From the UHGV virus genome UHGV-0258254: a stretch of DNA of 10,034 bases. One strand, written 5' to 3'. The DNA is from a virus. The notes under the pieces are model-generated. The model was not told where the DNA came from, searched no databases, and saw nothing but the letters and a program-made list of their open reading frames with translations. Positions 1 to 10,034 of the stretch are shown here, one piece after another (position 1 is the first letter of the stretch; every line of letters begins with the position of its first letter). A program made the translations under genes and the position numbers.

Positions 1-164
1 CTTCCATCACACCGCCAAAGAATGCGCTGACAGGCTCCCAGTATTTACGGATAAGCAACGCCCCGGCGACAATTGCAGCCACCACGGCCACAACCGGCCA
101 GCTAATCGCCCCGATGGCCGTTATAACGGCACTACCAACCGTCGTGAAGATTGCACCCATTGCG
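1..164. repeat. Direct repeat copy A1 of tape-measure internal sequence (partner 568-731, a few mismatches)
   Basis: Read by eye: 1-164 aligns base-for-base with 568-731 except a handful of substitutions (e.g. catcac vs caccac; ggccgttataacggcactacc vs ggcggtcataacagcactgcc). The repeat may extend beyond the window start. Confidence 0.85.
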
Positions 165-442
165 GCCAGCTCAGCCGCCGCCGTGCTGATGACCGCCGCC
201 TCAAGCGGAAAGCTGGACAAACTGACCGCTGCGTTTAAAGCCTCAGACGGGAAGACCGCCGAGCTGGTAAATATCATGCAGGACAACCTCGGCGGCGACT
301 TTAAGGAGTTTCAGTCCGCTTATGAGGCGGTGGGGACTGACCTGTTTGACCAGCAGGAAGGCGCACTGCGTAAGCTCACGCAGACGGTCACAAAGTATGT
401 GTTAAAACTCGACGGCTGGATCCAGAAAAACAAATCACTGGC
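164..442. repeat. Inverted repeat copy B1 (279 bp) of tape-measure internal sequence; partner 849-1127 in opposite orientation, about 98 percent identical
   Basis: The plus strand at 164-442 is the reverse complement of 849-1127 with about 4 mismatches. The plus-strand translation gives SSAAAVLMTAASSGKLDKL...DGWIQKNKSLA, the same peptide the minus-strand T gene encodes at 849-1127 (with S/T and V/A substitutions). Confidence 0.85.
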
Positions 443-2452
443 TTTGACCGGGGCAATCAGGTTTTTAAACCACTGCCACGCGGCCTGTAACTTTTCACCC
501 AGCCAGTCAAACAGCGGCTTAAGTGGCGTGAACAGCTCCCCCACCGGCGCAAATGCCGCTTTCAGCCCTTCCACCACACCGCCAAAGAATGCGCTGACAG
601 GCTCCCAGTATTTACGGATAAGCAACGCCCCGGCGACAATTGCAGCCACCACGGCCACAACCGGCCAGCTAATCGCCCCGATGGCGGTCATAACAGCACT
701 GCCAACCGTCGTGAAGATTGCCCCCATTGCGCCTGCTGCCGCGATGATGGCATTGATGCCGGTGATAACCGGCCAGGCTACAAGACCAATGGCACCGATG
801 ACACCAATCAGCGCCAGTGCACCACCGACAATGAGGCCGATGGTTGATGCCAGTGATTTGTTTTTCTGGATCCAGCCGTCGAGTTTTAACACATACTTTG
901 TGGCCGTCTGCGTGAGCTTACGCAGCGCGCCTTCCTGCTGGTCAAACAGGTCAGTCCCCACCGCCTCATAAGCGGACTGAAACTCTTTAAAGTCACCGCC
1001 TAGGTTGTCCTGCATGATATTTACCAGCTCGGCGGTCTTCCCGTCTGAGGCTTTAAACGCAGCGGTCAGTTTGTCCAGCTTTCCGGTTGAGGCGGCAGTC
1101 ATCAGCACGGCGGCGGCTGAGCTGGCCTCCTCCCCGAAAATAGTTTTCATGTATTCAGCCTGCTGGGCAGTACCGAGCCGGTTTTTCTCAAAACTGGCCT
1201 GCATTTCTTTCAGAATGGTAAATATTGGCCGGGTGTTTCCCTTGCTGTCTGAGGTTTTCACACCAAGCTCTTTGAGTGCATCCCATGCTTTTCCCGTCGG
1301 TGCCTGCAGGCGGCTTAACACGGCACGGCTTCCCGTCCCCGCCATTGAGCCTGTGATTTTTGCATCATGCAGCGCCCCGACCATTGCGGCGGTTTCTTCA
1401 ATGCTGACACCGGCATTTTTTGCCACAGGTGCGGCATAGGTCAGCGCATCGCTCATGCCGTCAAAATCGGCGGCGGTTTTGTTCATCGTCATGGAGAGAA
1501 CATCCCCGATATGAGCGACCTTATCGTTTGAAAGCTGAAAGGCGGATTTCATCCCCATCAGCAGGGCGGCGTTTTCTTCCATCGTGCGGCGGTTCGCCAG
1601 CGCCATATTCAGCGTGACCGGCGTTGCCGCCTGAATGGCATCAACATCCCCACCCGCTTTCGCGATGATTATCTGTGCACCGGCCGCATCATCCGCCGAG
1701 GCGGCGGTATTGTCGCCGAGCTGGCGCGCCTGTTTGCGTAGTGCGGTCATTTCGGCGGAGTCTTTTGCCACTCCGAGCACGGCCTGCAATTCTGAGTTTT
1801 TCTGCGCAAACTCATAACCGGGCATCAGCAACTTAACTCCGGCCATCGTTCCCGCCGCCGCAATCCCCACACCGGCAGCGCCCACTGAGGCCATATTTCC
1901 GGCCAGTTCCTTGCCTGCCTGATAACGCTGTTTTACTGCGTTAAGTTTTGCCTGTTGCGCACTGACACGCGCCAGCGCGTCACGCTGACGGTTAAGCTGT
2001 GCGGTGGTTTCACTGATACGGTTTTTCAGTCCCTGCTCATCATGTGCAAGATTGCGGGTATTAATTCCCACAACGGCCAGTTCCCGCTGCTGGCGTTTAA
2101 CGGAATCCGTCAGGCGGTTATATTTCGCCTGTAAGTCCTCCGCCGCACGCTTTGCGGATTCCAGCACTTTCGCCTGAGCACGTGTCGGACGTTCGGTGTT
2201 TTTAAACTGTGTGGCAAGGGCTTCGGCCTCCTGCCGTGCCTTTTCAAGTGCATGACCAGTCACGGCGAGCTGTGCACTGGTCTTGCGAAATCCCTCAATA
2301 CGGGATGCCTGACCGTTCAGCTCACGCAGTGATTTTTGTGTTTCCCGGATATCCCCCGACAGCGATTTGCTCGCTGTGCGGATGGATTTAAACGGGCGGG
2401 ATGCCTGGTCAACAGCCCTGAGCAATACCTGTAATTTTACATTGTTACTCAT
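320..2452 (-). CDS. T: Phage tail tape measure protein (P2 gpT-like); 3' end disrupted by rearrangement, C-terminal ~40 codons (320-442) are antisense of an inverted T fragment
   Basis: 710-aa ORF immediately downstream of E/E' with its start overlapping the E' stop. It has a long coiled-coil-like Q/A/R/L-rich N-terminal region and a Gly/Ala/Ile-rich hydrophobic segment typical of tape measure proteins. Its position after the frameshifted chaperone pair matches P2 order. The region below 442 is not authentic T sequence. Confidence 0.8.
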   Translation of the reverse strand: MSNNVKLQVLLRAVDQASRPFKSIRTASKSLSGDIRETQKSLRELNGQASRIEGFRKTSAQLAVTGHALEKARQEAEALATQFKNTERPTRAQAKVLESAKRAAEDLQAKYNRLTDSVKRQQRELAVVGINTRNLAHDEQGLKNRISETTAQLNRQRDALARVSAQQAKLNAVKQRYQAGKELAGNMASVGAAGVGIAAAGTMAGVKLLMPGYEFAQKNSELQAVLGVAKDSAEMTALRKQARQLGDNTAASADDAAGAQIIIAKAGGDVDAIQAATPVTLNMALANRRTMEENAALLMGMKSAFQLSNDKVAHIGDVLSMTMNKTAADFDGMSDALTYAAPVAKNAGVSIEETAAMVGALHDAKITGSMAGTGSRAVLSRLQAPTGKAWDALKELGVKTSDSKGNTRPIFTILKEMQASFEKNRLGTAQQAEYMKTIFGEEASSAAAVLMTAASTGKLDKLTAAFKASDGKTAELVNIMQDNLGGDFKEFQSAYEAVGTDLFDQQEGALRKLTQTATKYVLKLDGWIQKNKSLASTIGLIVGGALALIGVIGAIGLVAWPVITGINAIIAAAGAMGAIFTTVGSAVMTAIGAISWPVVAVVAAIVAGALLIRKYWEPVSAFFGGVVEGLKAAFAPVGELFTPLKPLFDWLGEKLQAAWQWFKNLIAPVKASDLFFWIQPSSFNTYFVTVCVSLRSAPSCWSNRSVPTAS

Positions 2453-2872
2453 TCGTGTTTCCGCTTCGCCGGAGCGCCTTTTCGCGCCATGTGATGAGTT
2501 CGGTCAGGCTCATGGGATACAGTTCTGATGGCGGCCAGTGAAATATCACTGCCACATCCGCCATCAGGTCATCGACCGAGAGATTTTTCGGAAACGTCAC
2601 TGCACCGAGTTCGGCGACAAAAAACCGACCACCTTACCGGCCAGCGCCACAAGGTCAGGCAGTTCCAGCGCGGCGACCTCCTGCTCGGTCAGCATCGGCG
2701 CCGTCATGCGCGGCAGCACTTTAATCAGTGCATCGACTTCGGAGTTCGCGACCGCTGCCAGACTGACACCGCGCAGCGTCCCGGCATTGGGTTTCATCAG
2801 CGTGACCTGTTCGATAACCTGCTCACCACGTTTGACCGGATTTTCCAGGGTAATGACATTTTCTTTATTCAT
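2445..2872 (-). CDS. Tail assembly chaperone gpE+E', product of programmed -1 ribosomal frameshift (predicted 142 aa)
   Basis: I translated the -1 frame by hand from the slippery site: VAELGAVTFPKNLSVDDLMADVAVIFHWPPSELYPMSLTELITWREKALRRSGNTNE, ending at TAA 2445-2447, which overlaps the T start (ATG 2450-2452). 85 + 57 = 142 aa, the size I recall for P2 E+E'. Confidence 0.8.
2597..2872 (-). CDS. E: Tail assembly chaperone gpE (91 aa)
   Basis: 91-aa ORF between tail tube FII and tape measure T, ending GFLSPNSVQ with an in-frame T TTT TTG slippery heptamer. Size and position match P2 gpE. Confidence 0.88.
   Translation of the reverse strand: MNKENVITLENPVKRGEQVIEQVTLMKPNAGTLRGVSLAAVANSEVDALIKVLPRMTAPMLTEQEVAALELPDLVALAGKVVGFLSPNSVQ
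2618..2624 (-). other. -1 programmed frameshift slippery heptamer T TTT TTG (X XXY YYZ) in gene E
   Basis: Minus-strand codons are ggT TTT TTG (G83 F84 L85 of E); the plus strand reads caaaaaa at 2618-2624. Confidence 0.8.
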
Positions 2873-2900
2873 GGTTTTCTCACTTCTGAATCAGGGTTAA

Positions 2901-2921
2901 CCGGTCAGCCTGGCTGACCGG
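2901..2921. repeat. Perfect 21-bp palindrome ccggtcagcc-t-ggctgaccgg in the FII-E intergenic region (potential RNA hairpin)
   Basis: Seen directly: a 10-bp arm, one central base, and the exact reverse-complement arm. It lies between the FII stop (2929) and the E start (2872). No U-tract follows on the transcribed (minus) strand. Confidence 0.7.
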
Positions 2922-2928
2922 ATGAAAA

Positions 2929-3447
2929 TCACAGGCCGATATTACGGCGGTGTTGCTCCAGCCGGTCGACGCCGTTCACCTTCTCAATCATGTTGATGGT
3001 GTCGATTTCGACCAGCTCCTTACCGTCCATCGTCAGCCGGAAATAGGTGCAGACCACGGAGATTTTCGACTCGGTGTCTTCTCCCTGTTTCCCCTCGCCG
3101 GTGTCGATTTCTTTCTGACGTCCACGCATGACCACTTCGACGGCCACCGTTTCGCCGGTATCGTCACGCTGGTAAGAGCCTGCAAAACGAATCGGCACAG
3201 CATCCACACCGGTTGCGGCGTAAAGCTCCCAGATAACCGAATCCGGGAAGCCACCGAGTGACCACTCCATTGACAGCGCATCGTCATCAAGGCCGAGGTC
3301 TACCGGTGCGCTGCCGTTCATCCCCGCACCGCGATAGTTTTCGAGCTTACGGGTCAGTTTTGGTAGCGTGACGGACTTCGCGACGCCCTGATAGCTGTAG
3401 CCGTTCAGAAAGACGTTCATTAACTTGAGTTTGCGCGGCATTGCCAT
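2929..3447 (-). CDS. FII: Tail tube protein (P2 gpFII-like), 172 aa
   Basis: 172-aa ORF directly downstream of the sheath gene. The sequence MAMPRKLKLMNVFLNGYSYQGVAKSVTLPKL... and its size match what I recall of P2 FII. The sheath-tube-E/E'-T order is conserved. Confidence 0.9.
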   Translation of the reverse strand: MAMPRKLKLMNVFLNGYSYQGVAKSVTLPKLTRKLENYRGAGMNGSAPVDLGLDDDALSMEWSLGGFPDSVIWELYAATGVDAVPIRFAGSYQRDDTGETVAVEVVMRGRQKEIDTGEGKQGEDTESKISVVCTYFRLTMDGKELVEIDTINMIEKVNGVDRLEQHRRNIGL

Positions 3448-3459
3448 CGGTCAGGCTCC

Positions 3460-4650
3460 TTAATTGCTGTTAACCGAGGTGACCAGATTTGCCAGGTATT
3501 TATCGGTAATACGCTGGCGCAGGGTCAGGTTTTCAAGAGGAGGCACCGGGGTATAGTCGTAGTCGATATACAGTTTTCCGGCCTTAAGGGTTTCCGCATC
3601 GTTGGATTCTTCGCTGAACCAGCAGGTCGCATCCACGATATAGCCGTTTGTTTTCAGCTCACGGAATTTGGCATTGATGCCGTCAACGATGTCGCGAATC
3701 AGCGTTGCGGTGATGGGCTTGTCCACCGCCCACATGTGCGCCTCAGCCATCGTGTCGGCCAGCACCTGCGCGGTGCGGGTGTAGTTTTCAAAGAGGAACA
3801 GCGGGTCATCAGAGCAGGTACGGTTACCCCAGAATCGGAAACCGTCGCGGCGAATCAGCGTAGTGACGCCTGACTCGTTAAGCAGGTCAGCATCGGTGCC
3901 GGACTCCTGCAAATCCCAGAATACAGATGCGCTGATGCCGGTAACACCGTTCACCCCGACATTGGACAGCGTTTTATGCCAGCCCTGCTCCTGGTCGATT
4001 CTGGCACGCAGACCCAGCGCACGGGCGGTGGCATACGCGGTGGCGGTGGTGCTGGTGACCGTATCCCATGCGAGGAAATCCGGCCAGATGACCATCAGCT
4101 CACGCTGGCTGAAATTCTGGCGGTAGGCTTTCACCTCGGAAATGGTTTTACAGCCCCATGCGCTGATATACCCGAAAGCGCGCAGCTTCTGACAGACTGA
4201 TGCCAGTGCTACAGCCACCTCTTTGGTATCCAGTCCCGGCACACCAAGAATACGCGGTTTAACACCGGTTACCGACTCCGCCGCCAGCAGGGCTTTCAGT
4301 CCGGTGTACTGACCGTTTTCGTCAGTGGTGCCGATGATATTGGAAACGGTCTGCGCAAGTTTCGTTTCTTCGTCGTCGCCGGTGCCGTCCTCCACGCGCA
4401 CAACAACGGTGACCGGTTTTGACTGGTCGGCGATAGCCTGCAACGATGCCGCCAGCGTGCCTTTTTTACCGGCCTTTGCAATTGCGCTCTGCACATTGGT
4501 AATCAGCACCGGTTTATTGAGGGGGAAGGTTTCCGCATCCGCATCGCTGGCCGTGCAGACCATGCCAACAATGGCAGTGGATACGGTGGAAATGACGCGG
4601 GTGCCGTCGTTAATCTCCAGCACCTGCACGCCGTGATGATAGTCACTCAT
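3460..4650 (-). CDS. FI: Contractile tail sheath protein (P2 gpFI-like), 396 aa
   Basis: 396-aa ORF matching the size of P2 FI, upstream of the tube gene. A GGAG ribosome-binding site sits about 9 nt upstream of the ATG on the minus strand. Confidence 0.9.
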   Translation of the reverse strand: MSDYHHGVQVLEINDGTRVISTVSTAIVGMVCTASDADAETFPLNKPVLITNVQSAIAKAGKKGTLAASLQAIADQSKPVTVVVRVEDGTGDDEETKLAQTVSNIIGTTDENGQYTGLKALLAAESVTGVKPRILGVPGLDTKEVAVALASVCQKLRAFGYISAWGCKTISEVKAYRQNFSQRELMVIWPDFLAWDTVTSTTATAYATARALGLRARIDQEQGWHKTLSNVGVNGVTGISASVFWDLQESGTDADLLNESGVTTLIRRDGFRFWGNRTCSDDPLFLFENYTRTAQVLADTMAEAHMWAVDKPITATLIRDIVDGINAKFRELKTNGYIVDATCWFSEESNDAETLKAGKLYIDYDYTPVPPLENLTLRQRITDKYLANLVTSVNSN

Positions 4651-4709
4651 CCGTTTAACTCCGTGGTTAATGGGTGAGTGGTATTTTCAGTTGTGCCGGA
4701 GATGTCAGG

Positions 4710-5303
4710 CTATTTGTCCCGGTTGGCTAAGGGATGACACAATTTATTCTTTGTCGCTGATGAGGGGAATTTCTTATAGAGCGTGGACAGGCCAATATCA
4801 AAAATCAGCGCCACGCGTTGACGAGATTCCCCCGCAGCCAGCAACCGTCCGACCTGCTCCCACTCACTCGCGGTGAGTTTCGGACGTCTGCCACCAATAC
4901 GACCTTTGGCTCTGGCCGCTTCCAGTCCGGCGCGTGTCCGCTCGACAATGAGTTCTCGCTCCATTTCAGCCAGGGCACCCATCACATGAAAGAAAAAACG
5001 CCCCATCGGCGTGCTGGTATCAATAGCATCCGTCAGACTGCGAAAATTAACGCCGCGTTCGCGCAGTTCCTCAACCAGAATGACCAGATGCCGCATACTA
5101 CGCCCCAGCCTGTCCAGCTTCCAGACTACCAGAGTGTCACCTGCTGATAATGTTCTGAGCAGTTTTTTCAGTCCCGGTCTGTCGGACTTCGTGCCGCTGA
5201 TTTTATCCTCAAAAATCCGCTCGCATCCTGCGCACTCCAGCGCGTTACGCTGCAATTCCGTGTTCTGGTCATTTGTTGACACGCGTACATAGCCAATAAG
5301 CAT
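4710..5303 (-). CDS. Site-specific DNA invertase, serine recombinase of the Hin/Gin/Pin/Cin/Min family (about 197 aa; likely start at the second in-frame Met, MLIGYVRVST)
   Basis: The N-terminus MLIGYVRVSTNDQNTELQRNAL carries the catalytic Ser motif. VVWKLDRLGRS, SPMGRFFFHVMGALAEMERELIVERT and the C-terminal HTH ending STLYKKFPSS are near-identical to what I recall of Gin and Hin. It lies next to a crossover site. The ORF track extends it two codons further upstream, to 5309. Confidence 0.93.
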   Translation of the reverse strand: MLIGYVRVSTNDQNTELQRNALECAGCERIFEDKISGTKSDRPGLKKLLRTLSAGDTLVVWKLDRLGRSMRHLVILVEELRERGVNFRSLTDAIDTSTPMGRFFFHVMGALAEMERELIVERTRAGLEAARAKGRIGGRRPKLTASEWEQVGRLLAAGESRQRVALIFDIGLSTLYKKFPSSATKNKLCHPLANRDK

Positions 5304-5358
5304 GAGCATCCCCCTGAATAAAAACCGGAGATGATGCCAGTTGCCCGTTATCTCTGCA

Positions 5359-5384
5359 TTTTCATAAACGTTGGTTTAGGAGAA
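5359..5384. other. Invertase crossover site 1 (hix/gix-like 26-bp site), plus strand ttttcataaacgTTggtttaggagaa
   Basis: Its reverse complement TTCTCCTAAACC-AA-CGTTTATGAAAA fits the Hin/Gin half-site pattern TTnTCnnAAACC flanking a central AA dinucleotide. It is in inverted orientation to the site at 7227-7252. The inner half ggtttaggagaa matches the inner half of site 2 at 11 of 12 positions. Confidence 0.75.
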
Positions 5385-5882
5385 GGCTCAGCATTGCCTG
5401 TTGGCGTACCTGTTCCGTGGCCCTCAGCCACTCCGCCAACAGGCTGGCTAAAATGCAACGGAGCAGCTTTTTCTGCTGAAGAATACCCAGAACTGGCAAA
5501 GGCTTACCCGACAAATAAATTGCCTGATTTACGTGGTGAGTTTATTCGTGGCTGGGATGACGGACGTGGTATGGATACGGGGAGGGCAATATTATCAGCT
5601 CAGGGCGATGCCATACGTAATATCTATGGTGAGTTCAAGACTGTAAACACCGAAAATTATTCAATATGGGAATCAGTAGGCTCGTTTAAGGGGGCAGTGG
5701 TGCCTTTGAATCCCTCAACGAACAATAGTTATTTCTCCTTAATCAGAAGTATGGTGACTGAAAGAACAGATGGCGCTGTTTACCCAAAAGTGATTGGTCT
5801 TGATGCTTCAAGAATTGTTCCAACTGCAAACGAAAACCGTCCTCGTAACATTGCCTTTAATTATATCGTGAGAGCTGCCTGA
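5385..5882 (+). CDS. Silent alternative tail-fibre C-terminal cassette (about 165 codons, no own start; expressed only after inversion fuses it to the constant N-terminal part of H)
   Basis: The frame is continuous through the crossover site (…NVGLGE|GSALPVGV…) and has the same phase as the LGLGE codons at the site inside H. It encodes a receptor-binding tail-collar-like domain (PWPSATPPTGWLKCNGAAFSAEEYPELAKAYP…LPDLRGEFIRGWDDGRG). The ATG at 5331 in the ORF track lies outside the segment and is probably fortuitous. Confidence 0.7.
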   Translation, partial: GSALPVGVPVPWPSATPPTGWLKCNGAAFSAEEYPELAKAYPTNKLPDLRGEFIRGWDDGRGMDTGRAILSAQGDAIRNIYGEFKTVNTENYSIWESVGSFKGAVVPLNPSTNNSYFSLIRSMVTERTDGAVYPKVIGLDASRIVPTANENRPRNIAFNYIVRAA

Positions 5883-6484
5883 TGAATAAAGCCGTATTAA
5901 ATAACGAACTCATTGCCATAAAAGCGGGAGACATTACCATTTATAATTATGATGGTGAAACGCGGGAATATATTTCCACATCAACTGAATATCTTGCGGT
6001 TGGCGTCGGTATCCCGGCATGTTCTTGTTTAGATGCACCAGTTACACATAAAGCTGGTTATGCAATCTGCCGTTCTGCAGATTTTAACTCATGGGAATAT
6101 GTGCCAGACCATCGCGGTGAAGTTGTCTATAACACCGAAACGGGAGAATCAAAAGAAATCACAGCTCCGGGTGATTACCCTGAAAATACAACCACTATCG
6201 TCCCGTTAACGCCATACGATAAATGGGATGGTGAGAAATGGGTGACAGATACTGAGGCACAGCATAGTGCCGCAGTAGACGCGGCAGAAGCACAGCGCCA
6301 GTCACTGATTGATGCAGCAATGGCTTCCATCAGTCTGATTCAGCTGAAATTGCAGGCCGCACGTAAACTGACGCAGGCAGAAACAACCAGACTTAACGCC
6401 GTGCTGGATTACATTGACGCGGTGACGGCAACAGATACCAGCACCGCGCAGGATGTCATCTGGCCTGAACTGCCGGAGGCGTAG
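5882..6484 (+). CDS. Tail fibre assembly chaperone (Tfa/gpG/Mu U-like), cognate to the silent fibre cassette, 200 aa
   Basis: Its start overlaps the stop of the upstream cassette (ATGA). The C-terminal motif LNAVLDYIDAVTATDTSTAQDVIWPELP is the conserved Tfa C-terminal signature, and the gene sits directly after a fibre C-terminus. Confidence 0.75.
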   Translation: MNKAVLNNELIAIKAGDITIYNYDGETREYISTSTEYLAVGVGIPACSCLDAPVTHKAGYAICRSADFNSWEYVPDHRGEVVYNTETGESKEITAPGDYPENTTTIVPLTPYDKWDGEKWVTDTEAQHSAAVDAAEAQRQSLIDAAMASISLIQLKLQAARKLTQAETTRLNAVLDYIDAVTATDTSTAQDVIWPELPEA

Positions 6485-6875
6485 GCCATTCAATATCTGG
6501 AGCACTGGAGGTATCAACCAGTTCCAGTGCGTCCAGATAATCCAGCCACAAATTATATTGCGCCAGTTCCTCACCTTTCAGACGACCAATAGCCGCTTTA
6601 CCAGGCCATTGCCTGCTGTTCATGTGCTCGTTGGCTTCATTAATAAGTTTTCCTTTTTTCAACTCTGCCAATGCAATAAGGTTTTCTTTTGATAAAGGTG
6701 GTTGCTCTGTCAAAACCGGATATCCCTCCTGATTGCTGACTATTTTCATGCCATTATCCTGACCATCCAGTAGTGACAGCCATTCATCCGTGGTTATCTC
6801 AACAGCATCTGAAGGTGCTTTATTTAAATCGGTAAAAAAACCATTTTCTTTTTGTGAATAGAAGTATCTGTCCAT
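6456..6875 (-). CDS. Tail fibre assembly chaperone (Tfa/gpG-like), cognate to the currently expressed fibre, 139 aa
   Basis: It lies immediately downstream of the fibre gene on the minus strand. The C-terminal motif NLWLDYLDALELVDTSSAPDIEWPTPP is the Tfa signature. Its 3' end overlaps the alternative Tfa convergently at 6456-6484. Confidence 0.8.
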   Translation of the reverse strand: MDRYFYSQKENGFFTDLNKAPSDAVEITTDEWLSLLDGQDNGMKIVSNQEGYPVLTEQPPLSKENLIALAELKKGKLINEANEHMNSRQWPGKAAIGRLKGEELAQYNLWLDYLDALELVDTSSAPDIEWPTPPAVQAR

Positions 6876-6878
6876 TTA

Positions 6879-8066
6879 TCAATCTCCAAAAGCAATCCAG
6901 TAAGCAAAAGGATTTATTCCTTGCTCAGTCACAGATGACATCAGGGAAAATTGCGATGGTGAAACAGGTAATGCTGCAAAACTAACCATTGTTGACACAC
7001 CTGACCGTGCATTATCGTACGATGCAACAACACAATAATTGGTATTGCTGAAAGATATCGGCAGGGTGATATTTACAGGTGAGCCTAATGGCCCTGATGC
7101 TGATATTCCCATTTGAATGATGGTTCCATCAGGCAATTTTCTCCAGCGATTAGAACTCGGATTTCTTTTCCAGGATGACATATCCGGTATCTGATTTTCT
7201 CCTGTGCCCACATCCCTTTTCGCCGCTTCTCCCAAACCAAGGTATGCGAGAAGACCAGCTACATCCTTTCCACTCAAATGAGTCAGCGTCTCATCCAGTG
7301 GCTGCTTACCTGACAGCGCATTGTTAATGGTGGCGCTGAATTTCGGGTCATTGTTGATAGCTGCGGCAATTTCTTTCAGTGTGTCCAGCGTGTCAGGGGC
7401 ACCGTTAATCAGAGCGGTAATAGCGGCCTGTACAAACGCAGTGGTCGCAATCCGCGTGGTGTTATTTCCTGCGGCAGGCGTCGGCGCTTTTGGCTCTCCG
7501 GTAAATGTCGGATTATGTTTCTGTGCATACTGGGTATGAGGGTCCTGTGCGGCAATGTGGTTTCTCATCTGGTCATCCACATACAGCCTTAATTCCAGGA
7601 CTTCATCATCCACGTATTTACGGGTCGCCAGTACCACCGACGGGTCGATTTTCAGCGTAATAGCTTCGGTATTCGTGACAACCAGAATCATGCGGATAGT
7701 CTGGGTACGACCGCTGCCTTCCTGCAACTGCGGTTTGTACGTTTCCGGGCAGTTCGCCACCGCAATGAGTACGCCTTCATCATCATAAAGCCCAATCTCA
7801 CGGATCCAGAATCCGCCCTCGTTCTCAGGGATGATTTGCTCCGCAATAATCTGGCTCTGGTTGTTCGGGTCAACACTCAGAAGATTCAGCGGCGCGATAC
7901 GTTTCTGGTTAATCAGTTTTGTCTGTGCCGGGTCTGGTGTCGGCAAGACACCATTCGCATCACCAACGGCCATTTGCGTCAGATTCAGCTTACTGCCGAG
8001 CATCGTCGCGTTAGCCAGCCGTGCTGCGCCCTGATTAGTCAGAATGGCGTAGTATTTCACTGTCAT
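6879..8066 (-). CDS. H: Tail fibre protein (P2 gpH-like N-terminal constant region fused to the currently in-phase variable C-terminal cassette), 395 aa
   Basis: The N-terminus MTVKYYAILTNQGAARLANA…MAVGDANG…GGFWIREIGLYDDEGVLIAVAN…GSGRTQTIRM resembles the P2 H / Mu S fibre N-terminal domain, and TAFVQAAITALINGAPDTLDTLKEIAAAINNDPKF is a conserved fibre motif. The crossover site lies within the codons for LAYLGLGE (about residue 280). The gene sits downstream of I, as in P2. Confidence 0.85.
   Translation of the reverse strand: MTVKYYAILTNQGAARLANATMLGSKLNLTQMAVGDANGVLPTPDPAQTKLINQKRIAPLNLLSVDPNNQSQIIAEQIIPENEGGFWIREIGLYDDEGVLIAVANCPETYKPQLQEGSGRTQTIRMILVVTNTEAITLKIDPSVVLATRKYVDDEVLELRLYVDDQMRNHIAAQDPHTQYAQKHNPTFTGEPKAPTPAAGNNTTRIATTAFVQAAITALINGAPDTLDTLKEIAAAINNDPKFSATINNALSGKQPLDETLTHLSGKDVAGLLAYLGLGEAAKRDVGTGENQIPDMSSWKRNPSSNRWRKLPDGTIIQMGISASGPLGSPVNITLPISFSNTNYCVVASYDNARSGVSTMVSFAALPVSPSQFSLMSSVTEQGINPFAYWIAFGD
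7227..7252. other. Invertase crossover site 2 (hix/gix-like), plus strand TTCTCCCAAACC-AA-GGTATGCGAGAA, inside the tail fibre gene
   Basis: The left half TTCTCCCAAACC fits the Hin/Gin half-site pattern and the core is AA. It matches the reverse complement of site 1 at about 20 of 26 positions. Both sites encode G-L-G-E in the same phase. Confidence 0.75.
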
Positions 8067-8674
8067 GCGTTTACTCTCAGGTTATCAATTAAATGAATGG
8101 CCGAGGCCGGGAAATAATCCCCTCCGACAATAATGGCCTCCGGGGTGTAGGGATAAACCGTCAGGGCGTCGCCGTGATAGCATCCCGCACCGGCAAAAAT
8201 GTTGCCGGTTGTACTTAAACTGATAGCCAGTCCCGTCAGATGGCGGCTTGCAGGTTTTGCATCAGCAACGAGACGCTCCAGCTCCTGATACATTTCCTCG
8301 GTAATACCCTGCTCAAGCACGCCAACAACGATGCGGAACGTCCCCGGCTCCTCGTTGAGCTGCCACCACTCCCTCACCTCAATCAGATAGCCGAGCGGCT
8401 CCACCACACGGCGAATCGCACCAATAGTGCCCTTATGGCAGTGAATGAAATACGCATCGCGGATAACAGCGCGTTTTGTCGCTTCCGGCCACTTATCATC
8501 CCAGCGGTCAACCGAAAATGACCACGCCAGCCACGGCAGCAGATTTGCCGGGCAGGTGTCCGGGTTCCACAGCTCACGAATACTGACCGGCGTTTTTTCA
8601 ATTTCCGCACAGGCTTTTGCGGCGGCGACTTCAAGCGGTGATGAGCCGGTCGGCAGCAGTCGCGAATCACTCAT
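8063..8674 (-). CDS. I: Baseplate wedge / tail protein (P2 gpI-like), 203 aa
   Basis: It sits between J and H as in P2. Its start overlaps the J stop by 8 nt and its stop overlaps the H start (ATGA). The sequence MSDSRLLPTGSSPLEVAAAKA… is recognisable as gpI-like. Confidence 0.85.
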   Translation of the reverse strand: MSDSRLLPTGSSPLEVAAAKACAEIEKTPVSIRELWNPDTCPANLLPWLAWSFSVDRWDDKWPEATKRAVIRDAYFIHCHKGTIGAIRRVVEPLGYLIEVREWWQLNEEPGTFRIVVGVLEQGITEEMYQELERLVADAKPASRHLTGLAISLSTTGNIFAGAGCYHGDALTVYPYTPEAIIVGGDYFPASAIHLIDNLRVNA

Positions 8675-9575
8675 CCGAGCCTCCGGTCACGACGCTGTAT
8701 TCGGTGCAGAAAGACGCCTGCGTACTGTTGAGCACAATGTCGGCCAGTGGTGCGGCCAGCTCGACACGCTGCACGCCTTCCACATGCAAAGCGGCATAAA
8801 TGGCAGACAGACGGATGTCGCGCCCCAGCCGGTGCTGTGCCGTGATATACGCTTCCAGTTTTTTCACGGCGGCAGCGCGGATGGGTTCGCTTTCGGGACC
8901 AGGGTAAAGATACAGCGTGGCGTTTATCTGGTATTCAACGATGGCGGCAGACTGCACGGTCACGCGGTCGGCCACCGGCCTGACGTCCTCGCCATTAAGG
9001 GCGTTACGCACCACGGCCAGCAGGTCTTCGGATGCGACGCCGTTATTTTCACGTGACAGCACAGAGATGGTGACACAGGCAGGAGACGGGCTGGTGACAG
9101 AGATATCCGCGACACGCCCGTCGGCACTGCGACCATGATACTGATAGGCACCCACCGACCCGGCGACGCTTAAGCCCTCAAACGCCTGCTGAATACGCAG
9201 ACGATAATCGGTGTCAGACTCCATCACTGCCGGTGTCGGCGGGATAGTCGAATCATCTGCCGGGGTGATAATCAGGCGCGTGGTGTTGTAATTGGCACCA
9301 ATCACATCAAGGTCATTACCGGCAGCACAGGCCAGCATCACCGCCCGTGCAGCCTCATTCACACGCTGACGCCAGATAAGCTCACGATAAGCATTTTCCT
9401 CCAGCAGTTTGACGAGAGGCTCAGATTCCAGCGTCAGGGTACGGGCGACCGCCTCCTGCTGGTCTTCCGGGTAAAGGGAAATCAGTGTCGCCTTGCGTTC
9501 AGCGAGAATGGTTTCAAAGTCCAGCTCCTCGACCACATCCGGTGCGGGTAGCTGGTTCAGGTCGATAATCGGCAT
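8667..9575 (-). CDS. J: Baseplate assembly protein (P2 gpJ-like), 302 aa
   Basis: 302 aa, the size I recall for P2 gpJ. It lies immediately downstream of W. The sequence MPIIDLNQLPAPDVVEELDFETILAERKA… is recognisable. Confidence 0.9.
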   Translation of the reverse strand: MPIIDLNQLPAPDVVEELDFETILAERKATLISLYPEDQQEAVARTLTLESEPLVKLLEENAYRELIWRQRVNEAARAVMLACAAGNDLDVIGANYNTTRLIITPADDSTIPPTPAVMESDTDYRLRIQQAFEGLSVAGSVGAYQYHGRSADGRVADISVTSPSPACVTISVLSRENNGVASEDLLAVVRNALNGEDVRPVADRVTVQSAAIVEYQINATLYLYPGPESEPIRAAAVKKLEAYITAQHRLGRDIRLSAIYAALHVEGVQRVELAAPLADIVLNSTQASFCTEYSVVTGGSDE

Positions 9576-9579
9576 GGTT

Positions 9580-9927
9580 TCAACTCACAGGGATGGTTAA
9601 CGAAAGTGGCTGGCCGGTGTCGTTGTGCTGGCCGGTTAACGTGACCGTCATTCGCCCGTCAAAGCTGCGCGCCGTGGTGACGGATGACAGGGTGACGCGG
9701 GGTTCCCATTTCAGCACCGCCATGTAACAGGCGACCTTAATCTGCAACTCAAGCGCCGGGGTCTGCGGCTGGTCAATCATTGATGCCAGCAACGAGCCGT
9801 AATCACGACGCATCACCCGTGAGCCGACCGGTGTACGCAGGATATCGCCGATACTCTGGCTGATATGCTCAAGGTCAGTGACAGTCAGGCCATCACTGCG
9901 ATTCATTCCGAGATAACGCGCTGTCAT
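9580..9927 (-). CDS. W: Baseplate assembly protein (P2 gpW-like), 115 aa
   Basis: 115 aa beginning MTARYLGMNRSDGLTVTDLEHISQSIGDILRTPVGSRVMRRDYGS…, which I recognise as P2 gpW. Its start ATG overlaps the V stop (ATGA). Confidence 0.92.
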   Translation of the reverse strand: MTARYLGMNRSDGLTVTDLEHISQSIGDILRTPVGSRVMRRDYGSLLASMIDQPQTPALELQIKVACYMAVLKWEPRVTLSSVTTARSFDGRMTVTLTGQHNDTGQPLSLTIPVS

Positions 9928-10034
9928 AGAGGTCCCCCTGTTGTGCCGCCACTGTCGCCGGGGTGTTTATGGGTATGCAGTACCTTACCGTTTGATGAGA
10001 GTTCACCGCCGGTGTGTTCAATGTTGCCGCGCAT
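9924..10034 (-). CDS. V: Baseplate central spike protein (P2 gpV-like), C-terminal 36 codons only; the N-terminus lies beyond the window end
   Basis: Hand translation of the minus strand from the window end gives …MRGNIEHTGGELSSNGKVLHTHKHPGDSGGTTGGPL* in the frame that ends with a TGA overlapping the W start. Its position upstream of W matches P2. Confidence 0.8.
   Translation of the reverse strand: MRGNIEHTGGELSSNGKVLHTHKHPGDSGGTTGGPL

Follow-up and report, generated by a model that had tools for sequence, protein, structure and literature searches.

What is to be made of a prophage gene that ends, at the very edge of a sequence, in pieces of itself copied forwards and backwards? The window (the whole stretch of 10,034 nucleotides that was analysed) comprises the tail module of a P2-like prophage of E. 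coli; the tape-measure gene T lies on the minus strand and starts at position 2452, and FI, FII, E and E′ are upstream of it in P2 order. From 443 to 10034 the module is pristine and fully open, and 98.7–99.4% identical to intact prophages; the scrambled part lies at the extreme edge of the given sequence. An earlier, sequence-only reading had noticed repeated T pieces at this edge and considered them to be either an old rearrangement or material from a second, related prophage.

A comparison with a P2 reference, which that reading had called for, breaks gene T into three pieces that coincide with the repeats it had claimed. In the BLAST alignment, T nt 1–2014 correspond to window positions 2452–439, T nt 1326–1604 to 164–442 in the opposite orientation, and T nt 1711–1885 to 178–1. 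Over 443–2452 the window is collinear with P2 T nt 1–2010 at 97% identity. Read along the T sense, the sequence is collinear from nt 1 to 2010, runs backwards from nt 1604 to 1326, restarts at nt 1722 and then leaves the window. The features are the following.

1–164, minus strand: A′, second copy of T nt 1722–1885 (T residues 574–627, a hydrophobic segment), T-sense, allele 2, exiting at the window edge.
1–277, minus strand: second open frame in the same phase as T, with ATG at 277–275 and about 37 junk residues followed by T residues 574–627.
164: junction 1, where the inverted filler, at T nt 1326, meets T nt 1722 and the two sides have one nucleotide (G/C) in common.
165–442, plus strand: B′, inverted filler, copy of T nt 1327–1604, allele 2, antisense to the interrupted T.
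320–2452, minus strand: truncated tape-measure ORF of 710 aa, of which residues 1–670 are T.
439–442: junction 2, T nt 2010–2014 (allele 1, sense) joined to T nt 1604 (allele 2, antisense).
443–567, minus strand: D, T nt 1886–2010, the last collinear stretch of the main T, single copy in the window.
568–731, minus strand: A, native copy of T nt 1722–1885 in the main T, from the repeat and the P2 comparison.
849–1127, minus strand: B, native copy of T nt 1326–1604 in the main T, identical to relatives L084 and L089.

The direct repeat is as it had been described: 1–164 and 568–731 differ by six substitutions without gaps, at a spacing of 567. The inverted repeat consists of 164–442 and the reverse complement of 849–1127, with seven substitutions, and forms a 279-nt pair around a 406-nt spacer; it was initially called as 164–449 and 842–1127 and was cut back to 442 on account of mismatches at 443, 445 and 446, a limit that is also backed by the resumption of P2 collinearity at 439. 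Direct and inverted copies abut at base 164. Bases 1–442 therefore form a mosaic of direct (A) and inverted (B) parts of T, and both repeat mapping and the P2 alignment bear out the fusion that had been proposed at about this position. Repeats of such length and similarity are no product of chance. As judged from the sequence, positions 1–442 are thereby shown to be the scrambled 3′ end of a P2-type T and not a gene module. The two partners at junction 2 have four nucleotides, TGGC, in common, and both joins fall within about 700 bp of the same gene. Relative to an intact T, the scramble amounts to a 567-bp in-frame insertion made up of a duplicate of nt 1722–2010 and the inverted filler, and produced by two switches of strand or template at microhomologies of 4 nt and 1 nt; within the window, the last 438 nt of T are replaced by the inverted piece and the second copy of nt 1722–1885.

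Gene T has 2448 nt in P2 as in every relative, and every complete T called in relatives from the protein look-up has 815 aa. Instead of some 815 aa with an intact C-terminal region, the window holds an ORF of 710 aa, 670 of them T-derived, which matches PF10145 PhageMin_Tail (Pfam, E = 1.9e-45), is missing about 145 C-terminal residues of the 815-aa T protein, and closes with 40 residues (ASDLFFWIQPSSFNTYFVTVCVSLRSAPSCWSNRSVPTAS) that are the antisense reading of B′. The hydrophobic T-like frame that had been anticipated on the minus strand of 1–164 does translate to T residues 574–627 (AMGAIFTTVGSAVITAIGAISWPVVAVVAAIVAGALLIRKYWEPVSAFFGGVME) and is still open as it leaves the window; on the same strand, stops at 322–320 and 313–311 precede it. 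Should T nt 1886–2448 lie upstream of the window, this second frame would encode a C-terminal piece of T. The plus-strand frame of B′ corresponds to T residues 443–534. Separately, a plus-strand ORF of 285 aa occupies 114–971.

The sequence-only reading had also seen an anomaly in tail genes U and D, which P2 order predicts after T and for which it found no room. This point has to be given up. With its start at 2452 and a length of 2448 nt, an unbroken T would stop at base 5 of the window, so that U and D would lie off the window in any case and their absence from it is no anomaly.

The two sets of T pieces are too divergent for a collapse of identical reads (six plus seven substitutions), as had been argued, and the differences between them bear the marks of natural variation. 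Ten of the 13 fall on third codon positions (P = 0.0016 under neutrality) and nine are synonymous; every one of the 13 is also found as a polymorphism in a set of 109 relatives. The variants are 7T, 119C, 122T, 128G, 134A and 155A in A′, and 194C, 205G, 290C, 296C, 305G, 365A and 388T in B′. B′ is 100% identical, with 0 mismatches, to T of E. coli 1217KP (L112), and A′ differs from T of E. coli 1217KP and 702/18 by 2–3 mismatches. The first copy has 0–2 mismatches to L084 and L089 over 732–2452; in a haplotype analysis that set allele breakpoints against the structural junctions, it departs from L084 over 497–644, inside 443–731, with a right limit that is tentative. Among 1,583 E. coli genomes none matches the block 443–731 exactly, and the best match carries three mismatches. 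On this pattern of substitutions, the extra copy (A′ plus B′) is a different natural P2-like T allele. Of the two origins entertained earlier, a second, related source stands, in the form of this second P2-like allele, and the codon-3 bias, the known polymorphisms and the identity to 1217KP all speak for it. The old rearrangement is a misfit, since divergence in situ would neither cluster at synonymous sites nor reproduce existing alleles. P2-like T alleles are heavily recombined in nature. T genes were found at 1,820 places in 1,583 genomes; more than one is present in about 13% of the complete E. coli genomes that carry P2, so that two alleles in one sample are common. The tip of the window has neither indels nor private variants, which indicates high-quality sequence and not a single noisy long read.

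Neither junction has a match in 5,426 complete E. coli genomes, and exact-pattern searches for both in GTDB species genomes, JGI metagenomes and IMG/VR returned 0 matches; the junction-2 peptide has none in 5.8 billion protein clusters, and neither junction occurs in about 150 relatives fetched. Each of 110 relative loci (110/110) gives one collinear P2-T match, and none carries A or B twice; later relative loci spanning T have an 815-aa T call, and the IMG/VR contigs that end inside T (L035 and L048) end collinearly. Uniqueness of this kind is what a chimeric join predicts, and the absence elsewhere also fits a recent real event. An exact protein look-up found no protein on record identical to the 710-aa ORF; the exact H, J, FI and E proteins were either too common or led to relatives only, and the rare o200 protein (24 of 31 blocks, 10 places listed) led to contigs of which the closest listed have 1–30 mismatches per segment against the window. 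The best match to the window among phage records reaches 97.8%, and a plasmid search gave no match.

Several explanations of this arrangement can be weighed against one another. An old duplication and inversion of one T gene in situ, with copies that have since diverged by 3–4%, would explain that the copies differ and nothing more, and is highly improbable: copies of a broken gene would evolve neutrally, which is at odds with the third-position and synonymous excess; every difference pre-exists in other phages, B′ being exactly an extant allele; and 3–4% divergence in place cannot be reconciled with all other window genes being intact. A programmed element, be it a serine-invertase segment, the repeats of a diversity-generating retroelement (DGR) or natural internal repeats of the tape measure, could draw on a Hin/Gin-type invertase gene 4.3 kb away and on the inverted repeat pair with its spacer, yet we find it scarcely credible. 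The junctions have no cix/gix-like crossover sites (none of the 26-bp Din-family (Hin/Gin/Cin) type at 164, 442, 849 or 1127), and inversion of 443–848 restores no T frame. The substitutions (T/C, C/G, T/C, G/A, A/G, A/C) have no adenine-specific pattern as in a DGR TR/VR pair, no reverse transcriptase is found among the window ORFs, and neither repeat occurs in any relative whose locus spans T. Invertase-mediated inversion was rejected for the lack of crossover sites and also because it would leave the duplication unexplained, and natural internal TMP repeats because all relatives are without them; a synthetic or planted duplication was set aside because the differences are natural polymorphisms. 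The only two good crossover sites flank the tail-fibre segment, at 5359–5384 and 7227–7252. For the scramble there are two readings, both ordinary: a sequence that is chimeric or mis-assembled, and a sporadic rearrangement that broke the gene. The former, a chimeric or assembly artefact whose switches took place outside any phage or host lineage, has in our estimate about an even chance of being correct. They would have occurred while the DNA was being handled for sequencing, or in the course of assembly, and the sample, either a polylysogen or a mixed population, would have contained two P2-like T alleles. In a stretch where these alleles do not differ, the allele-1 contig would have been linked to a molecule or read of allele 2 that was chimeric and inverted locally, and the product, with T cut at residue 670 and followed by 40 junk residues, would be without function. 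Alleles of a repeated element in scrambled order are the usual signature of chimeric or mis-assembled sequence. What points to an artefact here is the scrambling of two distinct natural alleles within one 1.1-kb stretch, the singleton status of the arrangement next to the single collinear T of T-spanning relatives, the otherwise pristine tail module with the disorder at the sequence edge, and the inverted joins of segments a few hundred nucleotides apart at short complementarity, as in in-vitro strand-displacement chimeras. Chimeras join non-adjacent or inverted segments with no or short microhomology, and the window has 4 nt at one join and 1 nt at the other.

Published figures for in-vitro chimeras cut both ways, as 85% are inverted, 76.8% are primed at ≥2 nt and proximal segments are favoured (PMC1855051), but a rate of about 1 per 22 kb (PMC1855051) makes two independent events 278 nt apart improbable. 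Microhomology of 1–4 nt is beyond a k-mer graph alone, so that an artefact requires chimeric molecules; a pure k-mer graph mis-join was rejected because the microhomology is too short. A missed-adapter or fold-back long read was rejected as well, since the joins do not lie at a symmetric point and natural SNPs, not errors, separate the copies. The quality of the tip sequence also weighs against an artefact. The window starts 6 nt past a copy-specific SNP (position 7), which is unlike the end of a de Bruijn contig; the edge may therefore be a slice boundary, and the contig may continue. The passage from sense to antisense and back to sense is also exactly what in vivo replicative template switching yields (PMC2621351). 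A real rearrangement in vivo is a possible explanation to which we give somewhat less than an even chance: an illegitimate double template switch between two P2-like genomes that shared one cell through polylysogeny, superinfection or a mixed lytic cycle. At T nt 2010, an intermediate of phage 1 replication or repair would have moved to nt 1604 on the opposite strand of phage 2 (GCCA/TGGC) and been extended backwards as far as nt 1326. A second switch, at 1 nt of microhomology, would have taken it to nt 1722 on the sense strand, and copying would have gone on from there into the 3′ end of T, U, D and ogr. The outcome would be a tail-defective hybrid prophage with T split into T(1–670) plus junk and junk plus T(574–815), from which recombination between the 164–289-nt direct repeats would remove 567 bp and leave an intact hybrid T. 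The window shows two switches, the second of which regains the strand and direction that had been left, a short inverted filler templated close by, and microhomology of 4 nt at one join and 1 nt at the other; these are hallmarks of microhomology-mediated template switching (PMC2621351). A′ is in T phase and open to the edge, as expected if T nt 1886–2448, U and D follow; the sequence is of high quality with natural variants only, P2-like polylysogeny is common, and natural T alleles are themselves heavily recombined. At least two junctions at 1–5 nt microhomology, a nearby inverted insertion and the regained original strand are all found here, as in MMBIR/FoSTeS events, whereas the expectation that all segments derive from the same molecule or locus does not hold, the filler and the resumed copy belonging to another allele. 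Such an event would need an inter-molecular illegitimate exchange and a hybrid that survived with a defective T in a prophage free of decay elsewhere, and no second instance, lineage or relative was seen in the collections searched.

It is important to point out that the biological weight of either outcome is small; neither opens a new question. If the scramble is an artefact, it is a caution for annotation, as neither the 710-aa ‘T’ nor the plus-strand ORF at 114–971 would be a gene and it would be wrong to score the prophage as defective. A real rearrangement would add one more route to a broken prophage gene and a small case of microhomology-mediated exchange between related phages, a non-homologous exchange between temperate phages caught in the act.

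Among known systems, bacteriophage P2 gene T (gpT, the tail tape measure of 815 aa with PF10145, in the F operon FI-FII-E-E′-T-U-D) is the reference for the intact state; the window agrees with it in collinearity, upstream gene order and domain, and differs in that its ORF stops after 670 T residues and 40 junk residues, with U and D off the window. MDA inverted chimeras (Lasken & Stockwell 2007, PMC1855051) resemble the window in that both of its joins are inverted and connect segments about 400 nt apart at the same locus, one of them with 4 nt of complementarity. Unlike these chimeras, the window has two junctions within 278 nt, one with only 1 nt of complementarity, and involves two alleles. 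It also differs from MMBIR (Hastings, Ira & Lupski 2009, PMC2621351) in its scale, which is hundreds of base pairs in a prophage gene and not kilobases to megabases, and in that filler and resumed copy come from an allele other than the strand that was left, so that two molecules are needed. With MMBIR it shares a duplication combined with an inverted templated insertion, microhomologies of 1–4 nt and the resumption of the original direction.

The only true anomaly in the window is a mosaic that replaces, within it, the last 438 nt of T, the P2-type tail tape-measure gene. The window holds the tail–baseplate module of an Escherichia coli prophage of P2-like (Peduovirus-type) kind, coded mostly on the minus strand, with ORFs matching W, J, I, H, G, then an invertible tail-fibre segment and a serine invertase, then FI, FII, E/E′ and T. 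From 443 to 10034 it is collinear end to end with intact prophages of E. coli genomes, both complete and draft (98.7–99.4% identity), and coordinates in the P2 locus L001 (T at 3567–6014) minus 3562 give window coordinates.

Features of the tail module
2452, minus strand: start of gene T
2445–2600, minus strand: GpE-family frame, overlapping E in an arrangement like P2 E/E′
2597–2872, minus strand: E
4710–5309, minus strand: serine invertase (Resolvase + HTH_7)
5331–5882 and 5882–6484, plus strand: alternative fibre C-terminus and chaperone
5359–5384 and 7227–7252: cix/gix-like crossover sites, 26 bp, inverted to each other
6456–6875, strand opposite the alternative fibre set: G
6879–8066, strand opposite the alternative fibre set: expressed H

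In P2, the E+E′ product arises via a −1 frameshift. The invertible host-range segment, within 4710–7252, is a known switch of the Mu G / P1 C type; 5368–7240 is flipped at 99.9% identity in three loci (L126, L128, L129) and stands as separate contigs of ~2 kb in three draft assemblies (L132–L134). The closest full-length relative of 443–10034, GCA_008373455.1 (L089/L127), differs at 71 positions (99.26% identity), grouped in blocks 514–722, 3136–4147 and 8648–9951 with long identical stretches between them, which is the ordinary recombinational mosaicism of P2-like prophages. Block 443–731, adjoining the inner junction of the mosaic, is nowhere matched exactly among 1,583 E. coli genomes; the best match, in strain NC22, has 3 mismatches. 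In a close relative, GCA_043234815.1 (L084/L125), an inserted IS21-family element (rve transposase and IstB; L084 12998–15300) separates the invertase gene from the invertible segment, and ISCro1 or ISEc12 is present within this module in other relatives; such insertions exemplify the usual decay route of these prophages.

Both repeats described in the sequence-only reading are present: 568–731 recurs directly at 1–164 with 6 substitutions and no gaps, and the reverse complement of 849–1127 stands at 164–442 with 7 substitutions. A BLAST search with P2 T hits the window in three pieces: 2452–439 (T nt 1–2014), 164–442 in opposite orientation (nt 1326–1604) and 178–1 (nt 1711–1885, the exact repeat being nt 1722–1885). 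The repeat finder extends the inverted repeat to 449, mostly through mismatches, with P2 collinearity back from 439. In gene sense, T runs from nt 1 to 2010, backwards from 1604 to 1326, then forwards from 1722 to 1885 at the window end. The inner join (junction 2, 439–442) has 4 nt, TGGC/GCCA, common to both partners, and the outer (junction 1, 164) one shared base. Relative to intact T, the net change is a 567-bp insertion: a 278-nt inverted filler followed by a second copy of nt 1722–2010.

Because 567 is a multiple of three, the T frame passes junction 2 into 40 junk codons; it then meets stops at 322–320 and 313–311, and the same phase reopens. From an ATG at 277–275 the reopened frame encodes junk and then T residues 574–627, leaving the window as the truncated T-like frame that had been anticipated at its edge. 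T as called has 710 aa against the normal 815. A plus-strand ORF of 285 aa (114–971) spans the mosaic, partly as a sense reading of the inverted piece (T residues 443–534); with no match in Pfam, it is not a gene but a side effect of the scramble. The lack of U and D, earlier taken as anomalous, is no anomaly: an intact T, 2448 nt long from its start at 2452, would reach only to window base 5, and every protein-look-up relative whose locus extends far enough has T (815 aa), U (159 aa), D (387 aa) and ogr in that order, so U and D would lie upstream of the window regardless.

Of the 13 substitutions that separate the copies, ten affect the third codon position of T (neutral probability of at least 10 of 13, 0.0016), and nine are synonymous, the other four being conservative (V/M, M/I, T/S, A/V). 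All 13 sites are polymorphic among 109 relatives, against which neither copy holds a private variant. E. coli strain 1217KP has a T that is 100% identical to the inverted piece, and the 1–164 copy differs from that allele family at 2–3 sites; the main T gene at 732–2452 has 0–2 mismatches to another family, L084/L089. Two functional T genes are thus the sources of the pieces. The differences are natural T alleles rather than sequencing errors; the suggestion of a second, related prophage is thereby supported, whereas an old rearrangement, with divergence in place after duplication, is ruled out by the codon bias and by variants already present in other alleles.

The scrambled arrangement is a singleton. 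Of the complete E. coli genomes (5,426), none covers either junction; exact junction patterns, short and long, have 0 matches in GTDB species genomes, JGI metagenomes and IMG/VR; the arrangement was not found in plasmid or phage records, nor the junction-2 peptide in 5.8 billion protein clusters. P2 T gives a single collinear match in each of 110 relative loci, none of which has either repeated segment twice, and later-fetched loci spanning T have it called at 815 aa.

Several candidate mechanisms were rejected: the phage invertase, as its 26-bp crossover sites lie only at 5359–5384 and 7227–7252 and inversion leaves the duplication unexplained; a diversity-generating retroelement, with neither adenine bias nor reverse transcriptase; natural internal tape-measure repeats, which no relative has; a pure graph mis-join; and a fold-back read. 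The chances that the scramble is an artefact are about even: two alleles of one repeated element are mixed and out of order, more than one T occurs in about 13% of P2-carrying genomes, the structure is unique and at the sequence edge, and the remaining prophage is pristine. A real in vivo inter-phage event is plausible, if a little short of even; its sequence is clean, the original strand is regained, and two junctions 278 nt apart are improbable as independent in vitro events, which occur about once per 22 kb (PMC1855051). Furthermore, the window edge lies 6 nt beyond a copy-specific SNP, unlike the end of a k-mer contig, so that this one may well extend further.

Each join links opposite strands of segments ~400 nt apart within T, and the final direction is the original one; the mosaic is probably the product of two strand or template switches. 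Two known processes match this geometry. In one, displaced 3′ ends misprime in vitro: a study of amplified E. coli DNA found 85% of the chimeras to be inverted, with proximal segments favoured and 76.8% primed with at least 2 nt of complementarity (PMC1855051). The other, in vivo, is microhomology-mediated template switching while DNA is replicated or repaired; it gives complex events with inverted duplications and 2–5 bp of microhomology, after which processive synthesis resumes (PMC2621351). The scramble is a one-off, non-functional form of a well-known gene and, with either origin, belongs to a known kind.
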